From: a phage
Reading direction: 5' to 3' (one strand)
Assembly: GCA_033286805.1 (NCBI GenBank)
Contig: GCA_033286805.1_4727.1
DNA length: 64,000 bases
Below are positions 3,967 through 53,987 of this stretch, one piece after another. The notes under the pieces are model-generated. The model saw only the letters and a list, made by a program, of their open reading frames with translations, was not told the origin of the DNA and ran no database searches. Both the position numbers and the translations under genes were made by a program. Numbering within the stretch: the first letter of the stretch is position 1; every line of letters starts with the position of its first letter.

Positions 3967-3998
3967 CCCTCCTCCTTCCCTGTTGGGTTGGAGGAGGG
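3967..3998. terminator. CCTCC/GGAGG palindromic hairpin (H1)
   Basis: ccctcctcc-tt-ccc-tgtt-ggg-tt-ggaggaggg, then TTATGCCGTCA; between convergent genes 3334-3960(+) and 4071-4772(-); A13 tract at 4013-4025. Confidence 0.65.
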
Positions 3999-4070
3999 TT
4001 ATGCCGTCAAGCAAAAAAAAAAAAATGATAGTCACAGGCTCTCCAATGAAGGAGAGCCGTGACCGTCAGT

Positions 4071-4772
4071 TTAAGATGCAGATAATCTCGCGTACTTCTG
4101 GCGAACATGGTTCTTACGGCGAACTTCGTCGTCCTCGTCACGCCATTCGAGGTAAGCAACGAATCGACGTAACTGCGCCGCCGTCATCGTTGACGAGCGG
4201 TCTTCTACGTCTAGAACAACGTAACGAACATCACCAACACCATCGCAATCAACGTAACTGAATACCAAAAGACCATCACCGTATTCAACGATGGTAACTT
4301 CGAATCGTTTATTGAACAAATAAAACAGTTCCGATTCAATGATCATCGGAATGACGCATAAATCAGCACGATTGAGGATTTCCATCATCACCCGTAACGC
4401 GCGAGGAGTATGGCGAGCGAACTGGTCGTTAAAACGTTGTTTCATCGCTTGTTCCACGCCATCTGTTTTTGTTCCAAACCAAGGACGTATTACAGATTTC
4501 GGTGGTGTGAGACGAAAGCGATATGCTTGTATAAACAACAGAATATCAGCGACGTTAGGAAATTCTTCCTGGTCTTCGTATATCTTGCGGATAATATCCG
4601 GAATCGTAACCATCAAGTATTTCTTATCGCCTCCCACTTTCTCGAGATTAGCAATATGTCCTTCTACCATAGGCTGGTAAACGAAATTATACCAATGACG
4701 GTATCTTTCGGTGCGTTGGTAGTTTGGGATAAAATTAAGAATAATACTCACTGCGCGTTTTAATGGGTTCAT
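4071..4772 (-). CDS. hypothetical protein (233 aa)
   Basis: Long ORF on dominant strand, last gene of a minus-strand block, converging on hairpin at 3967-3998. Confidence 0.55.
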   Translation of the reverse strand: MNPLKRAVSIILNFIPNYQRTERYRHWYNFVYQPMVEGHIANLEKVGGDKKYLMVTIPDIIRKIYEDQEEFPNVADILLFIQAYRFRLTPPKSVIRPWFGTKTDGVEQAMKQRFNDQFARHTPRALRVMMEILNRADLCVIPMIIESELFYLFNKRFEVTIVEYGDGLLVFSYVDCDGVGDVRYVVLDVEDRSSTMTAAQLRRFVAYLEWRDEDDEVRRKNHVRQKYARLSAS

Positions 4773-4786
4773 CGGAAGGATCCTTC

Positions 4787-5200
4787 TTATGTTTTAATAT
4801 GCACATCGTCAATCCCCTCGGTAATCCAGCCGATGGGAAGGACAATCGTTGTTATCGTGTTATGGGTGTAATGATTGAGAAAGTGGAAATAGTAATTTTT
4901 GTTAGACTGTTCGATCCGTAGGTCGAGGTGCGCGTCTTCAGGTAACCGTAACCAAGCACCGTACAGTTCATTAAACTTACGCTGAATTTTACCGGGGTTC
5001 ATTGGAACCCCACGACCACGACGATGTAGCTGACGTAATGATTCAATCAAACACTCAGAGATACCCGTTGTCGTTCCGTTATCGCTTGTATCAATAACGA
5101 TGAACTCTCGTGACCCACGACCGAGATAAAAGCCAGCGACAAAAGCTGCAGCAACAAAAATTATCGTACCGATACCAATATACCAATAGTAAGTATCCAT
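4787..5200 (-). CDS. small membrane protein (N-terminal TM helix)
   Basis: ATG 5200 with GTGAGG SD; hydrophobic stretch IGIGTIIFVAAAFVAGFYL. Confidence 0.5.
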   Translation of the reverse strand: MDTYYWYIGIGTIIFVAAAFVAGFYLGRGSREFIVIDTSDNGTTTGISECLIESLRQLHRRGRGVPMNPGKIQRKFNELYGAWLRLPEDAHLDLRIEQSNKNYYFHFLNHYTHNTITTIVLPIGWITEGIDDVHIKT

Positions 5201-5211
5201 AACGACCTCAC

Positions 5212-5739
5212 TTATACCCAATAGTCGGCAAGCGGTTTTACCTTATTAATGGGCAACTGTACTTTACCGATGTTCTCTACATCCGCATCAGCGTAGAGAA
5301 CAATTTTATCATCGTCTCTTTCCCAACGAATAATAAATCGACCAGGAAGAAGATTACTCTGTTCAAGAGACGCAGTAACCTGCTGCGTCAAAACAGACAA
5401 CCAAGCAGGCATCAATGTTGCAATATCTAAGTCATTTGACCACTCAGCACGTTGCTCCACTGGACGTAACATACGTTCGACGGTGCGTTGAACCGTTGCG
5501 GTGATATAGCCTTTATCTTCGTCACTGATTGGATCAGGACGAGACACAAAACGTTCAGCAGGCTTGTGGGTAATATATTCATGCAAATCGATGAGTGGTG
5601 TTGTCATAGTACTCGCTCCATCAGAATGTAATTGGGTAACCCGTAGGGTTGTCTGCATGCTATTCAGAAGCGCAAAAGCGCCATAAACAACAACGATACC
5701 AAGTATAGCCAAAACAGAAATCATTAACGTGTATTGCAT
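5212..5739 (-). CDS. membrane protein (N-terminal TM helix)
   Basis: ATG 5739 with GGGGAG SD at 6 nt; TM segment LMISVLAILGIVVVYGAFALL. Confidence 0.5.
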   Translation of the reverse strand: MQYTLMISVLAILGIVVVYGAFALLNSMQTTLRVTQLHSDGASTMTTPLIDLHEYITHKPAERFVSRPDPISDEDKGYITATVQRTVERMLRPVEQRAEWSNDLDIATLMPAWLSVLTQQVTASLEQSNLLPGRFIIRWERDDDKIVLYADADVENIGKVQLPINKVKPLADYWV

Positions 5740-5840
5740 TGTCATCTCCCCTACATACGCATCTTGAAGATCGGTTAAAAACAACAAAAGAAAAAACGAT
5801 ATAAAGCAAGGTCCTCTGATATCAGAGGACCTTGGATCAA

Positions 5841-6497
5841 TTAGCTTGCAGCTTCTTCATTTGTATCAGGTTTGCTTCCCCCTAACAAACCGTCAAACAG
5901 ACCCGTATGTTTCAGGTAGAAGAGAGCGATAGCGCCCATTGCTGCTGCGCTCGTCGCCGTTAACGCAACCCCAGCACGATACTGCCATTTACGGTCAGGC
6001 TTTTGATCAAGAGCCATACGACGCATGTATTCAGCCTCTGCTTCATTCCGATGAATTTCGGATTCAGCCAAGCGGGCTAAGGTATCGCGGTCAAGGTTAT
6101 CATAACGTACGTTCATGGTGGTTTCCTCTTGTTTGGAAGTTGATTGCTTAGTGGATTCTTGGTCAACAGTCGTTTCAGATGGTTCAAACGGCTGGTTGTT
6201 CATTTTCTGATCTTTATTGGTCATGATAGACTCCTTCGATTTTTGAGATGAAATTGATTTAAACCATCGTGGATGGCGGTATTCAGTTTTACATGTGCAG
6301 TTAAGTTTCTCGTGCAGGAAAGCGTAAAAACGTTTTGCGCCTACACGTAAGGCTTTCAGCATTACCCATCCACGAGCACTCAAACGGTGTAGCTGTTGCG
6401 GTATGTCTAGTTTCCTAGCCAAGCGAAAGTATCTTTCAATCACTTCGATAGGAAACCATTGTTGTTCCACATCGGTGAGACTGAAAGTCTTATCCAT
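5841..6497 (-). CDS. hypothetical protein with C-terminal TM helix
   Basis: First ORF downstream of promoter box at 6522-6545; C-terminal hydrophobic segment GVALTATSAAAMGAIALFYL. Confidence 0.5.
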   Translation of the reverse strand: MDKTFSLTDVEQQWFPIEVIERYFRLARKLDIPQQLHRLSARGWVMLKALRVGAKRFYAFLHEKLNCTCKTEYRHPRWFKSISSQKSKESIMTNKDQKMNNQPFEPSETTVDQESTKQSTSKQEETTMNVRYDNLDRDTLARLAESEIHRNEAEAEYMRRMALDQKPDRKWQYRAGVALTATSAAAMGAIALFYLKHTGLFDGLLGGSKPDTNEEAAS

Positions 6498-7469: not shown

Positions 7470-7475
7470 TCGTCG

Positions 7476-7508
7476 AGCCTGTCCTTCGGGGCAGGCTTTT
7501 ATGCTGTT
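7476..7508 (+). terminator. intrinsic terminator, TTCG-tetraloop family (T1)
   Basis: agcctgtcc-ttcg-gggcaggct then TTTTATGCTGTTA; directly after stop of 6648-7469. Confidence 0.75.
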
Positions 7509-7577
7509 AAATATCAGGAATAAGAATTAACAAAATAGGAAAATGGTGTGAATATAACACAAAGGAGGGAGATGATC

Positions 7578-8113: not shown

Positions 8114-8118
8114 AAACC

Positions 8119-8148
8119 ATCCTCCCAACCCGTAAGGGAAGGGAGGAT
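8119..8148. terminator. CCTCC/GGAGG palindromic hairpin (H2)
   Basis: atcctccc-aa-ccc-gtaa-ggg-aa-gggaggat then AAATATGCCGTTA; convergent junction 7712-8113(+)/8167-8796(-); TTTTTAT on minus side. Confidence 0.7.
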
Positions 8149-8166
8149 GAAATATGCCGTTAAACG

Positions 8167-10639: not shown

Positions 10640-11454
10640 GGTGTTACAACAGCCTCTACTGACCATGGGAAGGTTTTCGCAACAACACCTTCCAGGAAGC
10701 GTTCAACTTCCGATTGCTCATACACCGAAAGCTTTTCGAACGGCGTTTGGTCTTCGGTTAAACCTACCGCATGAATAGGACCCAGGTCTTTAACCAGGGT
10801 GACTTCACCTTTAACGCCTTCACGTTTAACGATAACGGCGTGGTCATTAACCTTGGGATCGTACAGCACGCGCATCATGGTTACTGCATCATCCGGTTCA
10901 TAACCGAAATCGATGGCAACACGAGCATTCGTCCCTTCATCATCCAGAAGCTTGCTCAGCGCTTTACAACGGTCTTCAATCCAATCCAACGCGACCACGG
11001 TTTCTTGGCGTAGCTGAACCTCAACCTCTTTTCCTTGTTCGTCGATACGTTTCACGGTAACAAAATCGTGTAATAAACGGTCAGGAAGGAGAGAAGCAAT
11101 AAGCTCAACGTCGGGTTCAGGTTTTTCGTTTTCCAGAATGATGGTCGCTTGTGCGTCCAGATGTTCTTTAAAACGGATGTAGCGTGTTAATCGCAGAACT
11201 TCGTCTTGGGATTTTGCGTCTTCGGGAATAATCTCCGTCATGACGTTATAGATCTTTTCAGCGAACGTCGGAATTACGGTGATTGTAATTCGTGCTGGCG
11301 TGCCACGCTCCTGGTACTCATCGGCTAATTTCTTCGCCATCCCGTTAAAGTAGGTTTGGAGAAACGGTTGCTGCGTTAGAAACATTTTCTCCAGATCGGA
11401 ATAGCGATGCTTGCGTGCATGGCCTAGCTTCTTCATGGGTTTTTTCATCAACAT
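10636..11454 (-). CDS. hypothetical protein (272 aa)
   Basis: ORF immediately downstream of the SbcC-like gene; no phosphoesterase (SbcD) motifs found. Confidence 0.55.
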   Translation of the reverse strand: MLMKKPMKKLGHARKHRYSDLEKMFLTQQPFLQTYFNGMAKKLADEYQERGTPARITITVIPTFAEKIYNVMTEIIPEDAKSQDEVLRLTRYIRFKEHLDAQATIILENEKPEPDVELIASLLPDRLLHDFVTVKRIDEQGKEVEVQLRQETVVALDWIEDRCKALSKLLDDEGTNARVAIDFGYEPDDAVTMMRVLYDPKVNDHAVIVKREGVKGEVTLVKDLGPIHAVGLTEDQTPFEKLSVYEQSEVERFLEGVVAKTFPWSVEAVVTP

Positions 11455-11469: not shown

Positions 11470-13926
11470 TTAAATAATCGTGACGTGTTCGTTATACGTT
11501 TCAGGGAGGATGATGTTCGTTTTATCAAGAACCATACACTCGGCTTTACGGAATGATGCATGGTTGATCACATAGTGACTGATGAACCACACCTGGCTTA
11601 CGCGGTGGCCATCAACCAGACGACGAACAAAATCCATGGCATTAGATTGGTGTTGCGGATCAAATGTTGATGCGAATTCATCTAACATCAACGGATAATC
11701 CGTAAACCCTTTGTAATGCATCATCGCGATGATAAACGCGATATTGATAATTTCCTTTTGCCCCTTACTCCCATAAACAATATCTTTTCGCGGTGTCGGA
11801 TACTTCTCAGTTAAAAGCGGAAAACGATAGTTCAATCCTTGCGCGTCGATAGCACACGGGAGTATCTGAAGTTGGTATTCCCAAATACTCGCAATGATGC
11901 CGTTCATGTACTCAACGAACGCGTTGATGGGACCCGCAATTGTTTCGGCAATCAGTCCGTTGGATGGACTCAACTCATCCAGAACAAGTTGTGCGTAACT
12001 GAGCTGTTCTTCCACCTCTTTTTGTGTCGTTTCCAACTGAGCCAGAAGCTGCTGGTCGGTTTTAGCTTCCTGTAACTGCTGTTCGACATGGCTTATTCGG
12101 CGAACCGTATCAGACATCGCAGCACGTAACGATTTCGTGTAGAGGTGTTGCAGATACTCTAACCACAGTTGCGTTAACGCTTTATCGCTGTTATCAGAAC
12201 GCACCTGATCTTCCATAATCGCCGTAATGGTTTCCAATCTACCTTCCGTAGCTGTGATGGCTTGTGTTAACCGCTCAACGGTTGTTAACAACTCTGTCCT
12301 GTTCTTATAAAGCAATTCTCGACGTTGCTGTAACGGTTCAACATCAACCGCTTGTACCCGTTCGAGCATGCCTTGAAGATGCTTCCGTTCCTGTTCGGCT
12401 TGTGTGTAACGCGCAAGTTTCTCAAACGCAAGCAACCAATCGTTAATGATTCCAATGCTGCGGAATCCTAAACCGTTTTTACGTCCTTCTTCCAGCAGAT
12501 TGTCCCACATGGGTTTAATGGCGTAATAATCCTTCGTCCAACGTGTTAACTGACGATGCTGTTCCATCCAGAGCGTATAGCGCTGAACCTTCTCACTAAG
12601 CTCAGCTAACGATTTCTCTTGTTCTTCAACCCAAGCACGACCCTTCTGAATACGTTGTTCAATACCCGCTTTGCTGGTCTTTTCTGTTTCACCAACGTGA
12701 AAGCGATAATTGCATTTTGGACAGCTGGTCTGGGGTTGGTGGTTAAGGTGGTCGAGGTGCGCTTCTAAATCGGCTAACGCATGTTTCGCGTTACGCAAAC
12801 GCATTCTTGCCGCCTCTTCCTCCTTGATGTAAGCTTCAGCATCGTAAACATGATAGGTGTTGTCGGTATCAATCCATTCTTGCAATAGTTCTGTTAACGG
12901 AGCCTGAACTTGCGTGAGCTGTTGTAAACAAACCGCGGCGTCCAGATTCATTGTTAAAAGCTCACCTGGATGATCTTGCTGAAGTTGTTCGTCCAAACAG
13001 GCAAGGCGGGCTTTAATTTGATCAATATCACCTTCTCCAGACTGTTTCAACTGGTCAAGGATATTATCGATACCCAACAGCTCGTCAACCTGACTTTCGA
13101 GTTTCGCATTCGCATTCGCGAGTTGCTCTCTTAGTTCAGCCAGATTCCGCTGTTCTTGTTGCGATGTTCCTCCTTGGTAACGAACAACAGCACGAAGAAG
13201 CTCACGATTAAAATGATGGGCGCGTTGTGCGGATTCCAGAAGCTGTCGTTGATCAACATCGCTATCGAATAACGGCAATCCCATCATCGCTTCGAGCGCT
13301 GAGCGTTGCTGTTTTAACTCTGCTTCCAATCCCTGATGGTCGGTGCCGGTGTATTTCGCTTCAATGCGTTGTGATGTTTCAACCAACTTATTCAGCGTAT
13401 GCTCATTCACCGCTTTCAGTGAACGTACTTGTTGCTTAACCACCTGAAACAACTCAAGCGCATAATCGACGTTAACCGGACATATCTGCGTTAATCGTTC
13501 GCGACGTTTCATCGGTCCCATTTCGGTGAACTGATAAGCCGTTTCGTAACCTAACAACAAACGAATAGTGTCATCATTAAGTTCGAAATGTTCTTCAATC
13601 AGTTTCCACTGAGCGGGTTGTGTACCACCACCATTCAGGTTCTCGCTGTCGTTAACGTAGAACTCATGCTTAAACCCTTTTTCTAAACGACTGATAAGAC
13701 GGTATTGCTTATTACGGTGTTCGCAGCGGTACTCGTAATACCCGTCTTTATCAAAATCGGCACGCTCAGGAACGGTTGGATACAGCAAAGGCAATAGACT
13801 ACTCTTACCCGAACCGTTGCTGCCTAAAATGAGTTGTACGGGATTATCTGGCCGGATGACCAGCTCCCGAATCATCCCGGTATCAAAACGATTGAATCCA
13901 CGTAAGTGGAGATAGGTGCATCGCAT
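11470..13926 (-). CDS. sbcC: SbcC/Rad50-like recombination ATPase
   Basis: N-terminal Walker A LILGSNGSGKSSLL; central coiled coil with CxxC zinc hook (SCPKCNY); C-terminal signature-like GSKGQKE and Walker B LMLDEF. Start set at ATG 13926 (MRCTYLHLRGFNRF). Confidence 0.8.
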   Translation of the reverse strand: MRCTYLHLRGFNRFDTGMIRELVIRPDNPVQLILGSNGSGKSSLLPLLYPTVPERADFDKDGYYEYRCEHRNKQYRLISRLEKGFKHEFYVNDSENLNGGGTQPAQWKLIEEHFELNDDTIRLLLGYETAYQFTEMGPMKRRERLTQICPVNVDYALELFQVVKQQVRSLKAVNEHTLNKLVETSQRIEAKYTGTDHQGLEAELKQQRSALEAMMGLPLFDSDVDQRQLLESAQRAHHFNRELLRAVVRYQGGTSQQEQRNLAELREQLANANAKLESQVDELLGIDNILDQLKQSGEGDIDQIKARLACLDEQLQQDHPGELLTMNLDAAVCLQQLTQVQAPLTELLQEWIDTDNTYHVYDAEAYIKEEEAARMRLRNAKHALADLEAHLDHLNHQPQTSCPKCNYRFHVGETEKTSKAGIEQRIQKGRAWVEEQEKSLAELSEKVQRYTLWMEQHRQLTRWTKDYYAIKPMWDNLLEEGRKNGLGFRSIGIINDWLLAFEKLARYTQAEQERKHLQGMLERVQAVDVEPLQQRRELLYKNRTELLTTVERLTQAITATEGRLETITAIMEDQVRSDNSDKALTQLWLEYLQHLYTKSLRAAMSDTVRRISHVEQQLQEAKTDQQLLAQLETTQKEVEEQLSYAQLVLDELSPSNGLIAETIAGPINAFVEYMNGIIASIWEYQLQILPCAIDAQGLNYRFPLLTEKYPTPRKDIVYGSKGQKEIINIAFIIAMMHYKGFTDYPLMLDEFASTFDPQHQSNAMDFVRRLVDGHRVSQVWFISHYVINHASFRKAECMVLDKTNIILPETYNEHVTII

Positions 13927-14040: not shown

Positions 14041-15129
14041 ATGAGCGACCTGGCAACAGACAATCGCACAAAAGGGAGTCAGCTAGCTCCAGACAACAAC
14101 GTAAGCGTTTTCCGTATCTTTGCCTTGGGTACTGTTGCTGCCGACTTTTCCAATAAAAGTCTGGAGGAAGATCCTAACCAAACGCTGGAGGTCTTTCTTG
14201 ATGAGATGATGTCAGGCGCTGATGGGAAAGTTGAAGCGGCGGGAAGCGTTAAAGAAGTCAGTGCAACAGACGCTCAAGGAAACAGCTATACGGCGAAAGC
14301 GGCAACAACAACCAGCGTACAGTGTTACTGGTTACCCTTCGGCAGTAACCGGATGACAGCACCTAACTTGAGGAAAGGTCAGCGTGTGGTGGTTTGGCGT
14401 ACCGCCGATGAAGAACAGCTCTACTGGCAACCCAAAGGAGGGGATAGCGAGCTGATGACCATGGAATCGGTTATCCTCACCGTCAGCGCACGTCCTAGCG
14501 CTAAGAAGGACCGTAAATCGATTTCAACGGAAGACTGCTATTACCTAATGGTTGATACCTTCCTCAAGAAGGCGGTTATCGGCACCAGCGCACAGCTTGG
14601 TGAAGTTACCCAAGTTTACATGGAACTTAATCTGGACGAGGGTTACCTACAGGTTGCGGACAGCGTCCATCAAAATCTGCTGTTACTCCATTTCGTTGAA
14701 CATATGCTGCGTTATCAAAACCAGGATGACAGCATCATCGACGTGACAAAAAAGAACATCACATTCCAGTGCGAGGATACGCTCAAAGCAATCGCTAAGA
14801 ACGATATCCGAATGAAAGCAAAAAACATTTATACCGAATGTGAGAACTTCGAGCGTACCAGCAAAACAGAAAGCGTTACGAGTCAGAATGTTTCTTTGAA
14901 GTGTGATCGTTACACCGCGCAAGTATCAGGACAGACCATGTTTAAATGTCCGAATACGGTATTCACTGGGGCTGTAAGCTTCACAGGTGAAGACGGAAAC
15001 ACGATGACGTTGAATGGGAACTTCATACACGTCGCAGGCTCTTGGCGTTCACCAACCGGAACAAACGTATACACCCACGATCACGGCGGTGTAGACCGTG
15101 GCAGCGGTCGTACAGATCCGTTCCAATAA
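14041..15129 (+). CDS. hypothetical protein (362 aa)
   Basis: ATG 14041 with AGGAG SD 8 nt upstream; followed by A-tract and hairpin 15150-15183. Confidence 0.6.
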   Translation: MSDLATDNRTKGSQLAPDNNVSVFRIFALGTVAADFSNKSLEEDPNQTLEVFLDEMMSGADGKVEAAGSVKEVSATDAQGNSYTAKAATTTSVQCYWLPFGSNRMTAPNLRKGQRVVVWRTADEEQLYWQPKGGDSELMTMESVILTVSARPSAKKDRKSISTEDCYYLMVDTFLKKAVIGTSAQLGEVTQVYMELNLDEGYLQVADSVHQNLLLLHFVEHMLRYQNQDDSIIDVTKKNITFQCEDTLKAIAKNDIRMKAKNIYTECENFERTSKTESVTSQNVSLKCDRYTAQVSGQTMFKCPNTVFTGAVSFTGEDGNTMTLNGNFIHVAGSWRSPTGTNVYTHDHGGVDRGSGRTDPFQ

Positions 15130-15149
15130 AAAAAAGAAATGCTATACAA

Positions 15150-15183
15150 CCTCCTTCCCTAGCCGTCAAGGCCGGGGAAGGAG
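15150..15183. terminator. CCTCC/GGAGG palindromic hairpin (H3, variant loop)
   Basis: cctccttccc ... gggaaggagg 10-bp stem with inner gcc/ggc stem; A8 tract upstream, T-rich downstream; convergent junction 14041-15129(+)/15200-15589(-). Confidence 0.7.
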
Positions 15184-15199
15184 GATTATAGTTTATTTA

Positions 15200-15589
15200 T
15201 TAACGCGTTGCATTCTGGATGATTTCTTTTCCGATCTTAACCAAAGCGGGTATCTGTACAGCGGTTGCGCCTCGATGACGAAACGCGGTCGTTAACGCGG
15301 TATCGATACTCACCGCACGTCCGTGAAGACGATCGAAATAGACTTGAGTGATTGCGGTAGCGTAATCCTTTCGCTGTTTCTTGGTTTGGCTCAACAGCGC
15401 CGCACTATGACTAACGATGAAGTAAGCGATTAAGAAGAACGCCGCTGACCGCGAACCAGGTAGAAAACCTTGTCGCTTAGGGAGCATCTCACAATCGCGA
15501 ACACTATTATCGTTCGCCAGCTCTTCCATATCAACACAGCATAATTTTGCATAGGTGTGGAGATAGTGGGTAAAAGTTGAATTTAACAT
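15200..15589 (-). CDS. hypothetical protein
   Basis: ATG 15589 with GAGGAAAG SD; last ORF of minus block ending at hairpin 15150-15183. Confidence 0.45.
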   Translation of the reverse strand: MLNSTFTHYLHTYAKLCCVDMEELANDNSVRDCEMLPKRQGFLPGSRSAAFFLIAYFIVSHSAALLSQTKKQRKDYATAITQVYFDRLHGRAVSIDTALTTAFRHRGATAVQIPALVKIGKEIIQNATR

Positions 15590-15695
15590 TTTTCTTTCCT
15601 CGATTACAATGAGTTCAATGTATAGCTTAAACGTCACAGAACGACGTATAACGGTTTGTTTTAATTTCTAATGGGTTTCCTTATCTAAGATTGAA

Positions 15696-16058
15696 TTAAA
15701 GCGCTCTGAAGAGTTCTGTAGCGTTCTCGTCACGTAAACAGGCTTCGTTCAACAATTCAGCTAACAGCTTCGACCGAACTTCAACAAATGTCCTGAGGCG
15801 ATGCTCCCATTCTAAACGGATAGTGTACGTATTATCCAGGTTTTTGTAATCAACGACAGATACCGAGCAGCGGGGTTCACGTTTGTTCACAGCACTCCAA
15901 ACATCACGGATAACCGTCACGCCTTTCTTGGTGCATGTAAACGTTAAAATACAGCGGTTATTCGCAGCTTCTTCACGGACGCCAACAAATTCACTTCGTA
16001 ACGATGAGACTTTGATCAGTCGGTCAATGGCGAGCGATAAACCGATACGTTGTTGCAT
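15696..16058 (-). CDS. small protein, tandem paralog family member
   Basis: Shares motif NRCILTFTCTKKG with next gene (MRCVRLTFVCTTLGK); AGAGGGGA SD before ATG. Confidence 0.5.
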   Translation of the reverse strand: MQQRIGLSLAIDRLIKVSSLRSEFVGVREEAANNRCILTFTCTKKGVTVIRDVWSAVNKREPRCSVSVVDYKNLDNTYTIRLEWEHRLRTFVEVRSKLLAELLNEACLRDENATELFRAL

Positions 16059-16059: not shown

Positions 16060-16488
16060 TCAAATCCCCTCTTTCAGAATCTCATTGAGGCTATTAGCAA
16101 CCGCATCTAACTTCGTGCTGATTACTTTTGGTGTCAATCCGTATATTTTCCAAACTATCTGTGGTTGACGTATTCCATTTGTCTGACAATACATCTCGAT
16201 CGACAACACCATATCGTCGGTGAACGTCGTGCTTTCGCAACAACGAAGATAGGCAGCCTCAAGCAACGTCTTTCCTAACGTGGTACACACAAAAGTCAAT
16301 CGAACGCAACGCATAGACAACGTGTTCGCATTCATTGATGCTGAGATCGGCTGAATGTGTTCACGCAGTTTTTCGTCTTCACGTAAAAGTGATAGGGTGC
16401 GATGTAAGCTGGTGTGCTGAGCAACCAGTGAATGATAAAGACCAACGCGCGCTGCAGTTACTGCTGATTCGGGCCATTTAATTTTCAT
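16060..16488 (-). CDS. small protein, tandem paralog family member
   Basis: Motif MRCVRLTFVCTTLGKT shared with 15696-16058. Confidence 0.5.
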   Translation of the reverse strand: MKIKWPESAVTAARVGLYHSLVAQHTSLHRTLSLLREDEKLREHIQPISASMNANTLSMRCVRLTFVCTTLGKTLLEAAYLRCCESTTFTDDMVLSIEMYCQTNGIRQPQIVWKIYGLTPKVISTKLDAVANSLNEILKEGI

Positions 16489-17905: not shown

Positions 17906-17943
17906 CAGTTAGCTCCTAAATAGATCTACAACGAACTTTCGAT

Positions 17944-17966
17944 GGAAGGGAGTATGTTTCCCTTCC
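17944..17966 (-). terminator. GGAAGGGA/TCCCTTCC hairpin (H4)
   Basis: Perfect 8-bp stem, 7-nt loop; between minus genes 18081-18371 and 17468-17905. Confidence 0.5.
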
Positions 17967-18080
17967 TTGGGTTCGTTTATTGCGTTACGAAGCTTTACAG
18001 CTTGCGTAAACCACAACGGTTCCATTGTTGATTACCTCAACATCATCCTGGTCCGTTTGATCGCAAGTTTGGTGTCCGCA

Positions 18081-19150: not shown

Positions 19151-19233
19151 CTAAAAAGATCCTCTGTTTTTCACGTTAATTAAACAACGTATTGATTTCT
19201 ATTTGACACAATACGAACATTGTACGTATCTAT

Positions 19234-19257
19234 CACTTAGGTAATATAGTCGTGAAA
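19234..19257 (-). promoter_or_regulatory. conserved 24-bp promoter-like box, copy b
   Basis: CACTTAGGTAATATAGTCGTGAAA; 84 nt upstream of ATG of 18368-19150(-). Confidence 0.55.
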
Positions 19258-19370
19258 GGATTTGCATTAAAGCAAGGGTTTTGTTTTTTAAGAAGGGATG
19301 GATTTAGAAGAGGTGTTTCAAGGAAGGTAAACGAGGATAGGTATTTTGATTTAAGTAAGTAAGTAAGATG

Positions 19371-19516: not shown

Positions 19517-19531
19517 TCAAAACAATGGATA

Positions 19532-19564
19532 ACATGTGTTTACCACCTTAACGGTAACACATGT
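19532..19564. repeat. inverted repeat ACATGTGTT / AACACATGT (9-bp stem, 15-nt spacer)
   Basis: Perfect reverse complements read directly. Confidence 0.6.
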
Positions 19565-19963: not shown

Positions 19964-19995
19964 CCTTCCTCCAACCCAACAGGGAAGGAGGAAGG
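19964..19995 (-). terminator. CCTCC/GGAGG palindromic hairpin (H5)
   Basis: ccttcctcc-aa-ccc-aaca-ggg-aa-ggaggaagg, 17 nt downstream of stop of 20012-20905 gene. Confidence 0.7.
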
Positions 19996-21792: not shown

Positions 21793-21825
21793 CCCCTCCT
21801 CATCCGTTATTGGGTGAGGAGGGGT
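21793..21825. terminator. CCTCC/GGAGG-type hairpin (H6, divergent)
   Basis: cccctcctca-tcc-gttat-tgg-gtgaggagggg; between 21048-21590(+) and endolysin 21888-22523(-). Confidence 0.55.
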
Positions 21826-31924: not shown

Positions 31925-31956
31925 CCCTCCTCCAACCCGTAAGGGAAGGAGGAGGG
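31925..31956. terminator. CCTCC/GGAGG palindromic hairpin (H7)
   Basis: ccctcctcc-aa-ccc-gtaa-ggg-aa-ggaggaggg then AATATGCTGTTA; convergent junction 30634-31914(+)/31966-32871(-). Confidence 0.75.
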
Positions 31957-31965
31957 AATATGCTG

Positions 31966-40993: not shown

Positions 40994-41033
40994 ACGGATG
41001 TAAAAAAAATAACACATAGTTAACCTTCTCCCC

Positions 41034-41067
41034 AACCCGTAAGGGAAGGGGAGAAGGGCTATGCGCT
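41034..41067. terminator. CCTCC/GGAGG palindromic hairpin (H8)
   Basis: ccttctcccc-aa-ccc-gtaa-ggg-aa-ggggagaagg then GCTATGCGCTAT; A8 tract upstream; convergent junction 38084-40993(+)/41075-41350(-). Confidence 0.7.
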
Positions 41068-43992: not shown

Positions 43993-45792
43993 TCAATCGA
44001 TTATGTCACGATCGTTAATTTCTACAATTTCTTCATCGAATCGACCGACGTCTTTCTTCAAGCCTGCATTGGTTGCTGCAACGTCATTTGCAATTTGTGG
44101 GGTAATGATTAACCGACCACGTTCGTCGATAGGTGCGTACATACTGAACTTTTGACGTCCGGTTGGTTCGGAGTGTGGAAGATTCAGATAGCTTGCACAG
44201 AACGGGATGGAACCACTAACCAAACGACTCTCGTCAGCCAATGCAGCACCGCCTGCGTTTTGGCTCTGGAGAACAACATGCGTGCTCACTTTGAACAGCA
44301 TGCAATCACCCGGTGACTGAATCGATGTTGCCACTTTCTCACGTTTATCACGATTGCTCTGGATATTGAGAATCGCTTCCGTTGCAACTTGATTTCGCAA
44401 CGCCTTCTGCACATCGCGATTGGTCATCTCTTTACGGTTGTTCTGTCGTTTGCCACGTTCTGTGGTTTTAAGATGGAACCCCAGTTTAAAGATGCTTTTA
44501 CGCACATCCTCCATGACATATTCCAACACCATCAATTCCTTACCGAACATCGTCGTGGTGTCAACACGACTCATTTCGATAGTAACATTGTCAATCAGAT
44601 ACGCCATAAATTCGTAGAAGTCGTCGCAAGGAATATTTTCCTGTTTGAACTTCTTCTGTTGAATTTCGTCAACGTAAAGATCGAGACTGTCGATGTGGTG
44701 GTTTACATCACGCAACAAACGCGCATCCGCATTGTTGTTATTAAAGATAATCAAACCGAGTAATGTACGCCAATGGTCTGGCGCATTTGCGAACTCCTCA
44801 ACCGGATAGTCTTCCGGAAAACGATCGTAATAACGGTCGATGAGATATAGGAACGCACCGACAAGGCCAAGAACAATACGTTCCGTGCCTCCACGTCTTA
44901 CAGCAATTTGAATATCAGGATGTTTGTAACGTACAGCGCTAGCGCTACGGCTTTTACCGCTTTTGCTGATACTAAAGCCTTTAGGAATAACCCCCATGGT
45001 GCGATAGATTACCCATTGGTCACGCGGAAAATCACGTTCAGCAAGGTTCCGTCCGGTTACGGCTTCGACACCTGCAAAACGTCGGAAACACTCACCCACC
45101 CCGTACTTCGCAAAGAGATAGTGACCCAGTGTGGTTACGCTGGTGTGGTTGATGTTGTCACCGTTCACTTTACTTTGTTTGGTAAGATGATAGATTTGCG
45201 ACCAGGGTAATGACAGGTAATGACGATAATCGATACCGGTCGGTGTATCATTGCTCAGGAACTGATACGGTGTACGTTTAACCGTGATTTTATCACGCGG
45301 AAGCATGATGAACGCCATGTCTTTCGTGTAACTGATTACGGGGTCAGCGAGTACCGCACTGAGAATGAAGTTCGCACCACGTAGACGCATTTTACCACCC
45401 TGACCTACCGCGGGTAATAGGAGAGGATGTCGGATAATGCAGTAGTCCTTTCCGGGTTCACGACGGTCGCCTGATTCCATCGCGCCGTACCAGCGGAATT
45501 CCAGCATCACCATAAACACATCGGAAGGCGCAAGGTCGAAGGTCAGCTTACCGCTATCCTTCCCTTTGGTTTTCTTTCCTCCGCTTAAGTAGTGGAACTG
45601 TTCGCGGGCCATACAGCGACGCAGGCCATGATACACCAGATCCTTAGGTAAACTATCTTTGCTGTTCCGCCAAAGACGATCAACATAGGACTCAACATCT
45701 TGCATCTTATCGACGACGATGTTGCGTGCTATCTTCTCGTTCATCTTCGGTGCAAGCTCAGCGACAGCTTTGCAGAATCTAGGATCCATCAC
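43993..45792 (-). CDS. hypothetical protein (599 aa)
   Basis: Long ORF on dominant strand; no motif recognised. Confidence 0.6.
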   Translation of the reverse strand: MMDPRFCKAVAELAPKMNEKIARNIVVDKMQDVESYVDRLWRNSKDSLPKDLVYHGLRRCMAREQFHYLSGGKKTKGKDSGKLTFDLAPSDVFMVMLEFRWYGAMESGDRREPGKDYCIIRHPLLLPAVGQGGKMRLRGANFILSAVLADPVISYTKDMAFIMLPRDKITVKRTPYQFLSNDTPTGIDYRHYLSLPWSQIYHLTKQSKVNGDNINHTSVTTLGHYLFAKYGVGECFRRFAGVEAVTGRNLAERDFPRDQWVIYRTMGVIPKGFSISKSGKSRSASAVRYKHPDIQIAVRRGGTERIVLGLVGAFLYLIDRYYDRFPEDYPVEEFANAPDHWRTLLGLIIFNNNNADARLLRDVNHHIDSLDLYVDEIQQKKFKQENIPCDDFYEFMAYLIDNVTIEMSRVDTTTMFGKELMVLEYVMEDVRKSIFKLGFHLKTTERGKRQNNRKEMTNRDVQKALRNQVATEAILNIQSNRDKREKVATSIQSPGDCMLFKVSTHVVLQSQNAGGAALADESRLVSGSIPFCASYLNLPHSEPTGRQKFSMYAPIDERGRLIITPQIANDVAATNAGLKKDVGRFDEEIVEINDRDIID

Positions 45793-47473: not shown

Positions 47474-47503
47474 CCTCCCCCAACCCTTACGGGCTGAGGG
47501 AGG
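47474..47503 (-). terminator. CCTCC/GGAGG-type hairpin (H9)
   Basis: cctccccc-aa-ccc-ttac-ggg-ct-gagggagg; ~100 nt downstream of 740-aa gene stop and 35 nt upstream of promoter box 47416-47439. Confidence 0.65.
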
Positions 47504-47602: not shown

Positions 47603-49825
47603 TCAGTTAGTCTGAACCGGCAGCTTGATGTTTTCAGTGTAGACCTTACGCAGGTTCACAACGTTAATCAGACCCAGCAGCGGGCAGTTGTTAACGAAGC
47701 GGCAGCGCGGCTGAACCATGGTTTCTTTAGAAACCTGACCGTTACGGGTAACCTGAGCAACAGATACCAGTTCCGGTACATACAGGAACATACCGAAGGT
47801 CAGCGGATCCGGAGAACCCTGGATACCACGAGACAGGGTCACGAAGATCTTATCGCGCAGCATGACGTTCGGGTTATCTACAACCACGAAGTTGAAGCTT
47901 ACACCAACGGTACGGAAATCGCCATCGGTCTGCAGGAACTGCGGGATGTAGTTGTCAGTTGCTACTACGCAACGCGGTTTCTCATCAGCGTTGGAAGACA
48001 GCAGCTGCAGAGCTGGCTGATAACCAGACTCAGAGTACATGCGGTATGCCATTTCACGAATCACGTTCATGATCGCAGCAGACACTTCAGCACGACGTTC
48101 TGCGGTGGTGGTACCCTGAACAGATTTCTCCAGGTCCAGGTTGATTTCTTCGAACCACGGACGGATCAGGTAACGACCGAAACCTTCGATCTGGATGTCA
48201 CCGAACTGACGGAAGCGAGAGGTCGCAACCGCTTTCAGTGCGTCTTTGTAGCTGAACAGTTTCTCAACCATCAGGTTGTCGAAACGTGCGTTAGCAGCTT
48301 GGATCAGAACGTCCAGGTCAGCAGCGTTTTCTTCCCAATCCAGCGGACGAGGAATGGAGAACGGAGCCAGCAGGCCGATTGCGTAACGTTCTTGCTTCAT
48401 GTTGAAGTCAAGGTGCTTACCGCGCTCACGACGGTTGCTGTTGTTACGGCGGATACGCAGTTCGTAACCAACCAGTTTGAAGCTCAGGTCTTCAGCCAGT
48501 TGTTTGAACTCTTCGCTCTTACGCGGTTGTTCGATGTTGTCCTGATCAACCAGGCGATACAGTTCAGCGTTAGCGCCGTTAACACGCAGACCCGCTTTCT
48601 CTACGTTGGAAGAACCGTAAACTTCGATCGCCAGCTGAGCAGCAGATTTCGCATCGATGATGTCCTGCAGCGCTTCAGCTTTCGCACCTTTAACGTCTTT
48701 GGTGTTCTCATCAACGAAGATGGAGTGAGTGTCGAACGCCAGGGTCATTTTGCGGAAGTCGCCTTCCAGGGATTTCTGGAAACCGTTGGTGATCAGACCA
48801 GATACGTCGAACGGTACGTAAGAGGTTTTGCTGTGCTTGGTAGATTTGATTTCCACCAGGATTTTGGTCAGCGTGATCTGGGCGTCCAGCGCGTCGGTGT
48901 TGTCGCTGTAACCGTTAGCCAGGATGCTATCGTCTTCAGCGATACCGATCATGTCGATCAGTTTATCAACAGCCAGGTAAGACGTTTTATAAGTTACGCC
49001 TTTAATTTCGATGTCACGCGGAGCAACGATAGTTTTGTCAACGAAGTACTGCGCGTTAGCATCGTCAGCACGATAGATCGGATGCAGATCGGTCACGTCG
49101 TTGGACAGAACGTCGTTGTACATGAACGCATCCAGCAGCGGACGACGTACCCAATCAGCCGGAGTACCGTCAGCGTTACGACGCAGGTGGTTGAACACCA
49201 GCGGACGACGGAAAGATACATCATAACCGATCTGGTTCGGAGCCAGAACGATGGTGTTGTACAGTTCGTTACCCATGCGGCTCAGACGAGAAGCCTTCAC
49301 GTTGAACACAACGGAGTACGGCATCATGTCACGCAGTTCTTTCTGGTCGTAGGACAGCTGAACCAGTTCTTCAGATTCGCAACCGCAGGAATCAGCAGCC
49401 ATCATGACGAAGTTAGAGCTATCGACTTCACGGCCAGACGGAGTGGTGCTGATGTTCATGGAACGTGCTTGTTTAGCATATTCCACCGGGTTGCCATGAG
49501 CCAGCATGATCAGTGCTGCTGCACGAGCCTGCTGTGCGTTCATGGTGAACAGCTGTTCTTCAATACGCTGCTTCTCTTCCGGAGTGGTGGTTTCGAAGCC
49601 CAGCATGGACAGAACCGGTTCTTCGGCTTTACGGATGTCGCTGCTGAAGCTCTTAACATCCATTTCGTTAACCAGTTTGTCCATGGATTTGAAATCAACC
49701 TTAGAAGCAGATTCCATAGACAGGAAGGTGTTCTCCAGACCTTTGTCTGCTGGTTTGCTACCATTAGCGGTCAGGAACTGGCGAGTGGCCGCGACCTGTT
49801 GGCTAAGAAGGGTTTTATCATTCAT
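47603..49825 (-). CDS. major virion structural protein (740 aa); major capsid or tail sheath candidate
   Basis: Strongest codon bias in window (CTG, CCG, CGT, GGT, AAC, TTC preferred); antisense frame stop-free for 766 codons; followed by hairpin 47474-47503. Confidence 0.75.
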   Translation of the reverse strand: MNDKTLLSQQVAATRQFLTANGSKPADKGLENTFLSMESASKVDFKSMDKLVNEMDVKSFSSDIRKAEEPVLSMLGFETTTPEEKQRIEEQLFTMNAQQARAAALIMLAHGNPVEYAKQARSMNISTTPSGREVDSSNFVMMAADSCGCESEELVQLSYDQKELRDMMPYSVVFNVKASRLSRMGNELYNTIVLAPNQIGYDVSFRRPLVFNHLRRNADGTPADWVRRPLLDAFMYNDVLSNDVTDLHPIYRADDANAQYFVDKTIVAPRDIEIKGVTYKTSYLAVDKLIDMIGIAEDDSILANGYSDNTDALDAQITLTKILVEIKSTKHSKTSYVPFDVSGLITNGFQKSLEGDFRKMTLAFDTHSIFVDENTKDVKGAKAEALQDIIDAKSAAQLAIEVYGSSNVEKAGLRVNGANAELYRLVDQDNIEQPRKSEEFKQLAEDLSFKLVGYELRIRRNNSNRRERGKHLDFNMKQERYAIGLLAPFSIPRPLDWEENAADLDVLIQAANARFDNLMVEKLFSYKDALKAVATSRFRQFGDIQIEGFGRYLIRPWFEEINLDLEKSVQGTTTAERRAEVSAAIMNVIREMAYRMYSESGYQPALQLLSSNADEKPRCVVATDNYIPQFLQTDGDFRTVGVSFNFVVVDNPNVMLRDKIFVTLSRGIQGSPDPLTFGMFLYVPELVSVAQVTRNGQVSKETMVQPRCRFVNNCPLLGLINVVNLRKVYTENIKLPVQTN

Positions 49826-52270: not shown

Positions 52271-52302
52271 CCCTCCTCCAACCCGTAAGGGAAGGAGGAG
52301 GG
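52271..52302. terminator. CCTCC/GGAGG palindromic hairpin (H10)
   Basis: ccctcctcc-aa-ccc-gtaa-ggg-aa-ggaggaggg then GTTATGACCG; A9 tract upstream; convergent junction 50635-52245(+)/52319-52645(-). Confidence 0.75.
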
Positions 52303-52645: not shown

Positions 52646-52651
52646 GATAAT

Positions 52652-53053
52652 TTAAAACATACGGTCGTTTTTAGCACGGGCGTTCATTACCAGATCGTAG
52701 ATGCCTGCGGTTCGTAAGCACTCTTCGTAGTAACGATGTGCGCCTTCATCAGCCATCCACGATAACCCACGGCTATCCGCAACAATAACCAGTTTGTTAT
52801 TGTTGAACGCACACACCACACGGTAGGTCGCGTTGTTATTCGGGTCGCGAGTGATAAGTTCGTAGACGCCGTTAACAGGTTTACTGAATTCGCCATTTAA
52901 CGGAACGAGTTCGGTAGTACCTTCAGCAAACGTTACGTTGATCGGTGATGGATCTTTAGCGATAACAGTATATTCCACATTGTGTTCTTTACTGGTCATA
53001 ATACCGAAGTAAGAACTGACAGGGGAACGTGGTACACTAAGAATATTAAACAT
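52652..53053 (-). CDS. hypothetical protein (133 aa)
   Basis: ORF on dominant strand. Confidence 0.5.
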   Translation of the reverse strand: MFNILSVPRSPVSSYFGIMTSKEHNVEYTVIAKDPSPINVTFAEGTTELVPLNGEFSKPVNGVYELITRDPNNNATYRVVCAFNNNKLVIVADSRGLSWMADEGAHRYYEECLRTAGIYDLVMNARAKNDRMF

Positions 53054-53123
53054 AGATGTTGTCCTCTTAATTGGATTTAGATTGTTGGGTGTGTAATTGA
53101 GAAATGAAAACGTTGTTTCGGTT

Positions 53124-53693
53124 TTAGACGATGAGTGACCAGGTGGTAAGCACCCCGCTTGCGAATTCGAGCTTAAGACGTTTACCGATAAGTTGTTGTT
53201 GGATCATCTTCTCAGTGATACGTCGATCTTGCTGAACCGCTTTATCAAACGCTTCTTTTGCTTCAGCTTGGTAGAAGTTCGTTTCTTCGTTTTCGTCGAT
53301 CTCTTCGAGAGCATCCTCGTCGATGTCAGCAAGTTTCACTCGACCGTTTTCATCAGGTTGTTCTGCAGGTTCATTGTCATACGGCGTGTCTTTTGTTGGT
53401 GCGACACGATGTTGCAACTCGACCTGTGTTAACATGATCTCCATCTCACCATCGATAGGAATGATTTCATCGGCGCTGCCGTTTTCGGTCAGCTCTCGAC
53501 TTTCCAGTAATGTCGTCGTAACAGAGAACACCTCTTCAACAGGAACCTCATCATCGTCGATGGTGTTAACCGTGTTGCTGGTAACTTCGGCAACAACCAT
53601 CAAATCAAATGCGTGAGGGTCACCTGGCATTTTGATGCCTGGAAGTTTGTTGAGGTACCAAGGATCAAGAATCATGATTTCTGGATTAAACAT
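53124..53693 (-). CDS. acidic hypothetical protein (189 aa)
   Basis: D/E-rich; first substantial ORF downstream of promoter box 53897-53920. Confidence 0.5.
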   Translation of the reverse strand: MFNPEIMILDPWYLNKLPGIKMPGDPHAFDLMVVAEVTSNTVNTIDDDEVPVEEVFSVTTTLLESRELTENGSADEIIPIDGEMEIMLTQVELQHRVAPTKDTPYDNEPAEQPDENGRVKLADIDEDALEEIDENEETNFYQAEAKEAFDKAVQQDRRITEKMIQQQLIGKRLKLEFASGVLTTWSLIV

Positions 53694-53896
53694 CGTATTT
53701 TACCTTTCTATGTTAGGTGGATTGCGGATAGAAGAATCAATGCATAGATTGATCGTTCTATGTTAGAAATTATTGCCGAACTGGTTATGGTTATAACGCG
53801 TGTTTTCGTATGCTGACGGGTCGCGTATTAATAAGGTCATGACTGTATCCTCGATTATTAAGAGAAATTTACAACGATAACAGTAACCGCTGTTAT

Positions 53897-53920
53897 CACC
53901 TAGGTAATGTAGTCGCGAAA
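53897..53920 (-). promoter_or_regulatory. conserved 24-bp promoter-like box, copy d
   Basis: CACCTAGGTAATGTAGTCGCGAAA; between hairpin H11 and minus block starting at 53693. Confidence 0.55.
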
Positions 53921-53954
53921 TAAACTGGAGTAATGCGAAATAAGACAGCATAGA

Positions 53955-53987
53955 ACCCTCTCCCAACCCAGCAGGGAAGGGAGAGGG
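53955..53987 (-). terminator. CCTCC/GGAGG-type hairpin (H11)
   Basis: ccctctccc-aa-ccc-agca-ggg-aa-gggagaggg; just downstream of 53994-54626 gene and 35 nt upstream of promoter box 53897-53920. Confidence 0.65.

Follow-up and report, generated by a model that had tools for sequence, protein, structure and literature searches.

Pyrimidine/purine hairpins with a TTATGCYGT tail are probable intrinsic terminators of a Goslar-like chimallivirus

Introduction

The bidirectional intrinsic terminators of bacteria are built around a symmetric hairpin flanked by an A-run and a U-run. Among phages, the closest described system is that of phiKZ, in which Oxford Nanopore Technologies (ONT)-cappable-seq identified the motif BCCYCCCCHWWDGGGRRGGBYTTATKYYGT, a hairpin with a TTAT region, at 61 termination sites, and in which six regions between convergent genes were reported to terminate transcription in both directions (Putzeys et al. 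2024, PMC10914365). A phiKZ-like terminator motif, A, has also been described in phage 201phi2-1, where motifs A and B combined form an elongated hairpin and 15 sites are bidirectional; eight of its terminators were assayed in vivo in a terminator trap, and the authors state that several were confirmed as functional (PMC11512511). Here we analyze a family of hairpins with a pyrimidine-rich 5' arm and a purine-rich 3' arm (Y/R hairpins) in a 64,000-nucleotide stretch of phage DNA (assembly GCA_033286805.1, contig GCA_033286805.1_4727.1), referred to as a whole as the window. A first-pass annotation of this DNA had listed eleven copies and proposed that they might be bidirectional terminators, RNA processing or stability elements, or elements that interact with ribosomes. 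The first of these options is favored by the placement of the hairpins at gene 3' ends, by their directional tail, by the presence of tails on both strands at convergent junctions and by the match to the phiKZ motif. By analogy with phiKZ, we consider it highly probable that these elements are the phage's own intrinsic terminators, of the phiKZ-like chimallivirus type.

A 12-kb piece of the window aligns over its full length with Escherichia phage vB_EcoM_Goslar at 97.1% identity. Goslar is a nucleus-forming jumbo phage of 237 kb, a relative of phiKZ in the family Chimalliviridae. The gene content of the window differs from that of Goslar by two replaced genes at 17005-17905 and one extra open reading frame (ORF) at 53994-54815. 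Judged from these alignments, the window is part of a Goslar-like chimallivirus genome distinct from Goslar.

Results

Hairpins are concentrated at gene 3' ends

The gene map of the window was obtained by transferring Goslar genes with BLAST (the Goslar record holds 247 coding sequences, with valid start and stop codons for all). Hairpins were located by an unbiased sliding-window fold of the window, and the same scan was repeated on Goslar. In Goslar, strong hairpins are present at 19 of 20 convergent junctions (in 17 of these 19, the 5' arm is rich in pyrimidine), in 43 of 78 same-strand gaps of at least 40 nt and at 4 of 20 divergent junctions. The occupation of convergent, and rarely of divergent, junctions is what is expected of a 3'-end signal and not of a 5'-end signal. 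Strong Y/R hairpins were defined for a further count by a folding free energy (dG) of -18 kcal/mol or lower and at least 10 pairs. Goslar has 22 of them in its intergenic DNA (16.8 kb) but only 2 in its coding DNA (220 kb), a roughly 145-fold difference in density. Thus, the similar density inside coding regions of relatives that the first-pass annotation had named as a finding that would speak against such an element is not what is seen in Goslar.

The window itself contains 24 strong intergenic hairpins, and strong hairpins are indeed found at all eleven coordinates of the original list (3967, 8119, 15150, 17944, 19964, 21793, 31925, 41034, 47474, 52271 and 53955), with dG from -17 to -31 kcal/mol. 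All of these hairpins are intergenic and located at gene 3' ends. Hairpins occupy every one of the window's seven convergent junctions, and the transferred gene map confirms the seven sites to which this position had been assigned (3967, 8119, 15150, 21793, 31925, 41034 and 52271). That every plus-strand gene island ends with such a hairpin is true of six of the seven islands, in which it lies 0-25 nt past the stop codon, but not of the island ending at 21590. There, an unrelated hairpin (21603-21643) comes first and the Y/R hairpin follows 196 nt further, 55 nt from the end of the endolysin gene.

The common architecture had been drawn too broadly. Seven sites (3967, 8119, 19964, 31925, 41034, 52271 and 53955) do share a two-tier form, composed of an outer stem of 9-10 bp, an internal loop and a CCC-NNNN-GGG cap; the internal loop is a symmetric 2x2 A·A loop and not the AA bulge described before. 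Of the remaining four, 15150 and 21793 differ in their interior, 47474 is an asymmetric variant, and 17944 does not belong to the family, as the polarity of its arms is reversed (GGAAGGGA…TCCCTTCC). The 5' arm is at least 70% pyrimidine at 10 of the 11 listed sites and at least 83% at nine. The exact 30-mer CCTCCTCCAACCCGTAAGGGAAGGAGGAGG occurs twice in the window (31926 and 52272), with a three-mismatch copy at 3968 on the minus strand, and not once in 100 shuffles, while CCCGTAAGGG has five occurrences against 0.07 expected. The earlier remark that such conservation exceeds what a generic terminator needs holds here, and for phiKZ as well. The family is also larger than the list of eleven: the unrelated stems at 7475-7498 and 59911-59932 bear an identical TTATGCTGT tail, and the 10-mer TATGCTGTTA is, as reported, common to the hairpin at 31925 and the TTCG-loop hairpin at 7476.

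The hairpins are followed by a directional tail

Of the strands on which a gene runs up to the hairpin, 53 of 98 have TATG within about 16 nt on its 3' side, compared with 10 of 64 among the other strands (Fisher p = 6e-7); the background of TATG in Goslar, 5% per 22 nt over the whole genome, rises to 9.5% between genes. Taken from the side of the tail, 21 of 24 intergenic TATGYYGT sites of Goslar stand directly behind a strong hairpin. Goslar sequences aligned on TATG give the consensus GGGG-tT-TATG-C-Y-G-T-t. In the window, the tail is indeed present but commoner than at the 'about half' of sites estimated before, since nine of the ten true members have TATG within about 16 nt on at least one strand, and five (3967, 8119, 31925, 41034 and 47474) have it on both. 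Exact TTATGCCGT or TTATGCTGT is found at 3999, 7499 and, on the minus strand, 59910. Variants of the tail without ATG also exist, namely TATAG at 15150 and TTATAC at 21793.

The strand of the tail follows the arrangement of the genes. At convergent junctions tails are present on both strands, in the layout …GCATAA-hairpin-TTATGC…, so that each flank is the complement of the tail of the opposite strand; at 12 of the 20 convergent junctions of Goslar, a tail follows the hairpin on both strands. Between genes of the same strand, the tail is on the transcribed strand only.

The tail bears directly on whether the hairpins might be 3'-end stabilizers or processing sites, at which the polymerase reads through and the hairpin defines the mature RNA 3' end and protects it from exonucleases. 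Very stable hairpins (-20 to -31 kcal/mol) at gene ends, together with a phage-encoded 3'-5' exoribonuclease (Goslar gp147), would suit such a role, and mapped 3' ends fit termination and trimming back to the hairpin alike. However, the directional TTATGCYGT is conserved downstream of the hairpin, in sequence that trimming would remove, and stabilization therefore gives no reason for its conservation. Moreover, several of the eight 201phi2-1 terminators put through the trap assay were confirmed according to the authors (PMC11512511). We regard stabilization in place of termination as quite unlikely. The two are also compatible; a terminator hairpin stabilizes its own transcript too.

The tail and the arms recur in other phages

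Both TTATGCCGT and TTATGCTGT fit the TTATKYYGT of the phiKZ motif exactly. The 18-nt 3' half of that motif, GGGRRGGBYTTATKYYGT, has six matches in the window at up to three mismatches, all on intergenic hairpins, where 2.2 are expected at any position. The full 30-mer matches Goslar three times at up to four mismatches, each time in intergenic DNA, and has no match in shuffles. Because the two-tier hairpins are longer, the ungapped 30-nt motif can fit only the shorter ones. A scan of phiKZ from 1 to 50 kb revealed the same layout, with GCATAA…TTATG palindromes at convergent junctions (e.g. GGCATAAGCCCTCCCGCAATGGGAGGGCATTATGTC). In the GenBank record of Goslar, terminator features are annotated on 5 of the 12 tail-bearing sites within the two stretches that match the window.

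A comparison at one orthologous position separates the conserved from the variable parts. In phiKZ, in Erwinia phage Ea35-70 and in the window, the major head gene is followed by a hairpin and a TATG-type tail. The three stems are unrelated (Table 1), whereas the tail includes TATGCCGT in both Ea35-70 and the window and TATGTTGT in phiKZ. Since the tail is kept with unrelated stems, and since the purine arm comes first in Ea35-70, the common features are homopurine/homopyrimidine arms plus the tail, and not an order of anti-Shine-Dalgarno (anti-SD) followed by Shine-Dalgarno (SD) sequence.

We also came across an identical two-tier core, CCCCC AA CCC GTAA GGG AA GGGGG, at positions 1964-1983 of contig L009 (IMGVR_UViG_3300020577_003345, 43.6 kb, GC 53%), an uncultivated viral genome (UViG) that has no BLAST similarity to the window. 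There the core is followed by a T-rich run, CTTTTCTTTATTC, as in an ordinary terminator. This may reflect either convergence or a wider spread of the design.

The stem is maintained by compensatory changes

Covariation was assessed in 25 different two-tier copies, which were taken from the window, from Goslar and from two IMG/VR genomes resembling Goslar and had all been pre-selected for at least 8 of 9 complementary outer bases. Within this set, two-sided compensatory changes are seen in 6 of 12 stem pairs, and the proportion of paired cells is 99%, falling to 51-66% when partners are shifted; the observed score was not reached in shuffles. All changes are C-G to U-A swaps, with the 5' arm remaining pyrimidine. 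The stems of nine Y/R hairpins are the same in the window as in Goslar, while three loops are altered. Examples of the Goslar two-tier copies are those at 4147, 15776, 27744, 48105, 49774, 61007, 63713, 71988, 93443, 174265 and 224382, with window counterparts at 8118, 19964, 31925, 52271 and 53956. Minus-strand transcripts contain the U·U/UUAC version, whose predicted stability is greater by 1-2.5 kcal/mol. The hairpin at 47474 is about 9 kcal/mol more stable on its transcribed strand because G·U pairs form there, which argues for a function at the RNA level.

TATG may have a meaning for the phage polymerase

In phiKZ, 5'-TATG-3' is the core of the late promoter of the non-virion RNA polymerase (nvRNAP), with G as the start site and with a contribution of the downstream sequence (PMC4666361). 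A 2026 structure shows that a pocket of GP123, a beta-like core subunit of the phiKZ polymerase that is retained throughout elongation, binds TATG as single-stranded non-template DNA; according to the same paper, which nowhere mentions termination, this pocket is not complete when the complex is transcribing (PMC12809450). The window encodes a homolog of GP123, gp039 (Table 1), in which 7 of the 14 named pocket residues are identical and two are aromatic swaps, compared with 24% identity overall (binomial p ~0.03). Two further Goslar proteins, gp165 and gp171, match the PHIKZ074 and PHIKZ071 chains of the solved nvRNAP; for gp078, annotated as 'RNA polymerase beta subunit', sequence comparison revealed no relative in the PDB. 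Relative to shuffling of synonymous codons, TATG in Goslar genes has an observed/expected (O/E) ratio of 0.69 (z = -13.8) and is the fifth most depleted sense-strand 4-mer, and its complement CATA is likewise avoided (O/E 0.73). There is no depletion of TATG in 55 E. coli genes (0.97) and a slight one in phiKZ genes (0.92). As TATG is avoided in genes of the phage and not in those of the host, the phage machinery seems to read it.

What it would be read for is a separate question. On one hand, the tail could be a promoter, instead of or besides being part of a terminator, in which case the module would stop one transcript and start the next and would produce antisense RNA at convergent junctions. 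The four bases are identical to the phiKZ late-promoter core (PMC4666361) and also reside on the non-template strand, a homolog of the TATG-binding subunit is encoded in the window, the tetranucleotide is avoided in Goslar (0.69) but not E. coli (0.97) genes, and the late structural gene gp219 of Goslar is preceded, 24 nt before its start, by one TATGCCGT that has no hairpin. However, the 12 convergent Goslar junctions that have tails on both strands offer no downstream gene to serve; since such tails face the 3' end of the opposing gene, they cannot be there to drive one. The tail continues with CYGT, unlike the phiKZ model promoter P119L, in which TATG is followed by TAGACAG (TATG-TAGACAGTT) and which has no terminator-type hairpin upstream. 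In addition, the phiKZ promoter concerns 5' ends, whereas the phiKZ hairpin motif came from 3' ends and not from start sites (PMC10914365), and some tails lack TATG altogether. At divergent junctions of Goslar TATG occurs at scattered distances, which is not decisive for promoter use. Overall, we consider promoter activity of the tail unlikely.

On the other hand, within the terminator reading, the TATG tail might be a pause signal read by the polymerase and not merely a weak RNA-DNA hybrid, an idea that we offer tentatively and consider rather unlikely. The elongating bubble would reach TATG as the hairpin forms, and the GP123 pocket could then hold the polymerase, replacing the U-run as the pause half of the terminator. 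Such a hold would resemble a sigma-dependent or core-recognition-element pause. The location of the tail on the non-template strand, its agreement with the direction of transcription, the avoidance of TATG in Goslar genes and the partial conservation of the pocket in gp039 are all consistent with it. The incomplete state of the pocket while the enzyme transcribes and the weak avoidance in phiKZ (0.92) count against it, UUAU alone may be enough, and P119L and the tail have only the 4-mer in common.

Ribosome binding is not the common function

The first-pass annotation had drawn attention to the resemblance of the arms to an anti-SD sequence (CCUCC) and an SD sequence (GGAGG), with an ATG 2-3 nt past the purine arm at several sites. 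According to this idea, the hairpin sequesters the SD sequence against the anti-SD mimic and thereby controls translation of mini-ORFs that start at the tail ATG. The tail ATG is, moreover, the annotated start codon in 4 of 63 Goslar cases. Nevertheless, ORFs starting at tail ATGs look random: their median length in Goslar is 17 codons (interquartile range 8-46), against 14 (5-27) for other intergenic ATGs, and their peptides are unconserved, having in common only M-L/P, which is imposed by TATGCYG. Mini-ORFs of 6-9 codons had been claimed for four hairpins of the list; the length is right for the seventh and tenth (H7, 6 codons; H10, 9 codons), while the first and eighth have 86 (H1) and 39 (H8) codons. 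Furthermore, tails without ATG exist, and the phiKZ consensus permits T at that position (TTATK). The GGAGG arm is fully paired in a hairpin of about -20 to -30 kcal/mol. In Ea35-70 the TTATGCCGT tail is retained with the order of the arms reversed; because its purine arm comes first, CUCCUC and not GGAGG adjoins the AUG. Finally, GGAG/GAGG is avoided in the coding sequence of Goslar, phiKZ and E. coli, and this avoidance in genes, as in the host, suggests that free SD-like sequence is selected against and not exploited. The random-like ORFs, the ATG-less tails, the paired SD arm and the flipped polarity in Ea35-70 lead us to regard a ribosome-directed role as refuted for the family as a whole, and translational control of this kind now appears scarcely credible.

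The annotated starts of Goslar gp047 (window 53763-53951), gp111 and gp183 coincide with a tail ATG 2-3 nt past a hairpin. At least in gp111, an ATG with an AAGGAA of its own follows in frame eight codons later, so the three starts may be mis-called; gp047, with 62 aa, is perhaps no gene.

Features of the window

Table 1. Hairpin elements of the window, the GP123 homolog and the elements behind the major head gene in three phages (a dot marks elements not assigned to a single strand)
Feature	Coordinates	Strand	Context	Stem	Tails	dG (kcal/mol)	Goslar counterpart and other matches
Two-tier Y/R hairpin	3967..3998	.	convergent junction gp187(+)/gp001(-)	CCCTCCTCC TT CCC TGTT GGG TT GGAGGAGGG; AA/AACA form on minus strand; CATA/TATG flanks lengthen stem to 3961-4003	plus TTATGCCGTCA 3999-4009; minus AATATGTTAAGG 3966-3955	-28.2/-24.9	stem identical, one loop change
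Two-tier Y/R hairpin	8118..8149	.	convergent gp007(+)/thymidylate kinase(-)	CATCCTCCC AA CCC GTAA GGG AA GGGAGGATG	plus TATGCCGTTA 8153-8162; minus GTTTTTATGCGC immediately left of hairpin		identical in Goslar and UViG 3300011560
Y/R hairpin, different interior	15150..15184	.	convergent baseplate gene(+)/gp014(-)	CCTCCTTCCC T AGCC GTCAA GGCC G GGGAAGGAGG	TATAG, not TATG, on both flanks	-27.3/-26.4	putative terminator 11186-11220 (record annotation)
Two-tier Y/R hairpin	19964..19995	-	16 nt past gp022 stop (minus-strand virion gene)		minus strand only, TTTATGTTTG 19963-19954		
Continuous-stem Y/R hairpin	21793..21824	.	55 nt past minus-strand endolysin gene end	CCCCTCCTCATCC…GGGTGAGGAGGGG	plus TCTTATACG, then TTTATGCGT	-31.5 (Goslar -32.2)	6 differences, remodeled, equally stable; putative terminator 17603-17637 (record annotation)
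Consensus two-tier hairpin	31925..31956	.	convergent gp030(+)/gp031(-)		plus AATATGCTGTTA 31957-31968; minus TTATGTTTGG 31924-31915		putative terminator 27746-27777 (record annotation)
Two-tier hairpin	41024..41057	.	convergent gp036(+)/gp037(-)	CCTTCTCCCC AA CCC GTAA GGG AA GGGGAGAAGG	CTATG next on both strands		differs in loop only, GTAA vs GATGA
Hairpin	47474..47503	-	99 nt past minus-strand major head gene stop		TTTCTATGCCGTTTA 47473-47459	-17.4 plus strand; -26.5 minus (transcribed) strand	
Consensus two-tier hairpin	52271..52302	.	convergent DnaB-like helicase(+)/gp044(-)		plus GTTATGACCG; minus T9 run in place of TATG		
Two-tier hairpin	53956..53987	-	between two minus-strand genes	loop AGCA	minus TTCTATGCTGTCTTA 53955-53941; tail ATG is annotated gp047 start codon		loop GTAA
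Related terminator, unrelated stem	7476..7509	+	after plus-strand gp005	AGCCTGTCC TTCG GGGCAGGCT	TTATGCTGT 7499-7507		annotated terminator 3508-3527
Related terminator	59902..59945	.		AGCCCACCCCGAAGGGCGGGCT 59911-59932	minus TTATGCTGT 59910-59902; plus GTTTATGCGT		annotated terminator 55080-55101; best window match to full 30-nt phiKZ motif, 59931(-), 3 mismatches
Terminator-like, outside Y/R family	17931..17976	+		GGAAGGGA…TCCCTTCC	plus TTTATTGCGT		5' half replaced in Goslar, where neighbor genes differ; 3' arm and tail conserved
Gene, homolog of phiKZ nvRNAP subunit GP123 (gp039)	43993..45792	-					GP123 match: E = 2e-57, 24% identity
phiKZ post-head-gene element, sense strand				GCCCTCCC-TTCG-GGGAGGGC	TTTATGTTG		
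Ea35-70 post-head-gene element, sense strand				AGAGGAGGAGC-ATT-GCTCCTCCTCT	TATGCCGTG		
Window post-head-gene element, sense strand				CAGCCTCCCTCAGCCC-GTAA-GGGTTGGGGGAGG	TTTCTATGCCGT		

Several other places in the window deserve mention. Between the 3967 hairpin and an unrelated 17-bp hairpin at 4026-4068 lies an A13 run (A17 in Goslar); read on the minus strand, the latter hairpin followed by T13 is a classical U-run terminator for gp001. The same region (window 4010-4068) is where the Goslar record has its arbitrary start. The 860-nt AT-rich stretch at 19151-20011 (Goslar 14972-15825) has no annotated gene. It includes many AAGATAA/ACAGATAA-like repeats on the minus strand (around 19360-19500), two more hairpins (19525-19571 and 19822-19862) and a hairpin-less TATGTCGT, and could be a promoter cluster, an origin or a non-coding RNA locus.

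Against a background of 95-99% identity to Goslar, the homologs of gp016 (16060-16488) and gp027 (27319-27804) are 68.5% and 78.8% identical, respectively, and the alignment of the gp026 counterpart (24712-27315) spans only 12% of the gene length. By these alignments, the three are local hypervariable or replaced genes. The window-specific genes at 53994-54815, 17005-17475 and 17468-17905 had no match in Pfam, a search of the whole window against Rfam gave no match at the gathering threshold, and a tRNA scan of the window found nothing. We also considered a link between ChmC and the hairpins and rejected it: the paper reporting enhanced crosslinking and immunoprecipitation (eCLIP) gives no binding motif and places binding near start codons.

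Discussion

The picture that emerges from the comparison with phiKZ is that of a terminator in which the nascent RNA would fold into a very stable hairpin with an all-pyrimidine 5' arm (CCUCC-type) and an all-purine 3' arm (GGAGG-type). Directly behind it, (U)UAUG-C-Y-G-U would take the place of a long U-run, and the hairpin together with the weak UUAU hybrid would stop and release the multisubunit RNA polymerase of the phage. Since the palindrome is strictly Watson-Crick and reads pyrimidine-first on both strands, one element at a convergent junction can serve both directions.

The likeness to the phiKZ terminators extends to the pyrimidine 5' arm, the purine 3' arm, the TTAT-K-YY-GT tail, the intergenic position behind genes and the bidirectional use between convergent genes; both phages, moreover, are chimalliviruses with multisubunit RNA polymerases of their own. 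They differ in that the phiKZ hairpin has a 7-bp stem, a 4-nt loop and GGGRRGG arms, whereas the main form in the window is longer, two-tiered and rich in GGAGG, and has a more variable spacer before TATG (TT, AA, TTC or GC). By the authors' description, motif A of 201phi2-1 resembles that of phiKZ, and its elongated A/B hairpin is analogous to the two-tier form. From the sequences compared, the latter most likely represents an elaboration, within the Goslar lineage, of the shorter phiKZ hairpin. With the bidirectional terminators of bacteria the elements share the use of one palindrome for both strands and an upstream flank that complements the downstream tail (CATAA/TTATG in place of A-run/U-run). 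In contrast to them, they have no long U-run, their tail contains G and C (UUAUGCYGU), and the polymerase concerned is presumably that of the phage and not of the host.

Several points weigh against this interpretation. The terminator function is carried over by analogy from phiKZ and 201phi2-1, and the 3' ends mapped by ONT-cappable-seq do not by themselves separate termination from processing. The canonical U-run is absent; the tails are T-rich yet interrupted (TTATGCYGT). A canonical rho-independent scan of window positions 1-20 kb (U-run of at least 5 T in 8) returned 20 sites against 20.6 expected and missed the Y/R hairpins at 3967, 8119, 15150 and 19964. TATG itself is missing at some members (15150 has TATAG on either flank, and 52271 has a T-run on its minus-strand side). 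Finally, there is not a single G·U pair among the 300 stem cells of the 25 copies, and the AA/GNRA face of the two-tier form is on the plus strand in about 14 of the 17 copies in Goslar, irrespective of the direction in which they are transcribed, including 4 of the 6 that lie between minus-strand genes. Neither feature is predicted by a model that acts on RNA only, and both hint at homogenization of the copies or an added constraint at the DNA level.

The last two features would be natural for selfish or recombinogenic palindromes, similar to repetitive extragenic palindromes (REP) or miniature inverted-repeat transposable elements (MITE), that spread through intergenic DNA and have no primary role in transcription. 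Near-identical paralogous copies, strict Watson-Crick pairing, an orientation fixed relative to the genome strand, the bordering of hairpins (17931 and 53956) by both differences in gene content between the window and Goslar, and the duplication of a hairpin with its left flank in UViG 3300045988 all fit such mobility. Yet mobile palindromes would not account for the exact placement at gene 3' ends and near absence from divergent junctions, for tails whose orientation tracks the upstream gene, for non-homologous stems that bear the same tail at orthologous sites in three genera, or for the same design at mapped RNA ends of phiKZ (PMC10914365). We therefore judge it very unlikely that mobility explains the family.

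The hairpins may act as joints at which gene cassettes recombine. The boundary of the replaced genes (17005-17905) falls within the hairpin at 17931 (window 17931-17976 compared with Goslar 13543-13643), the extra 273-codon ORF adjoins the hairpin at 53956 (window 53956-54815 compared with Goslar 49771-49812), and in UViG 3300045988 a hairpin with its left flank (…AATAAGACAGCATAG) is found twice, at L020 12791 and L023 3449.

If the elements are the phage's own terminators, a search for 'pyrimidine-arm/purine-arm hairpin plus TTATGCYGT' would mark the limits of transcription units in Goslar-like genomes in general. It also draws attention to the start codons of gp047, gp111 and gp183, which were probably assigned to the tail ATG by mistake. 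The terminator design of phiKZ would thereby extend to a genus infecting E. coli, with the tail, and not the sequence or polarity of the stem, as the part conserved across genera. Were the tail in addition read by the TATG pocket of the polymerase, a single short motif would serve chimalliviruses for starting as well as for ending transcription.

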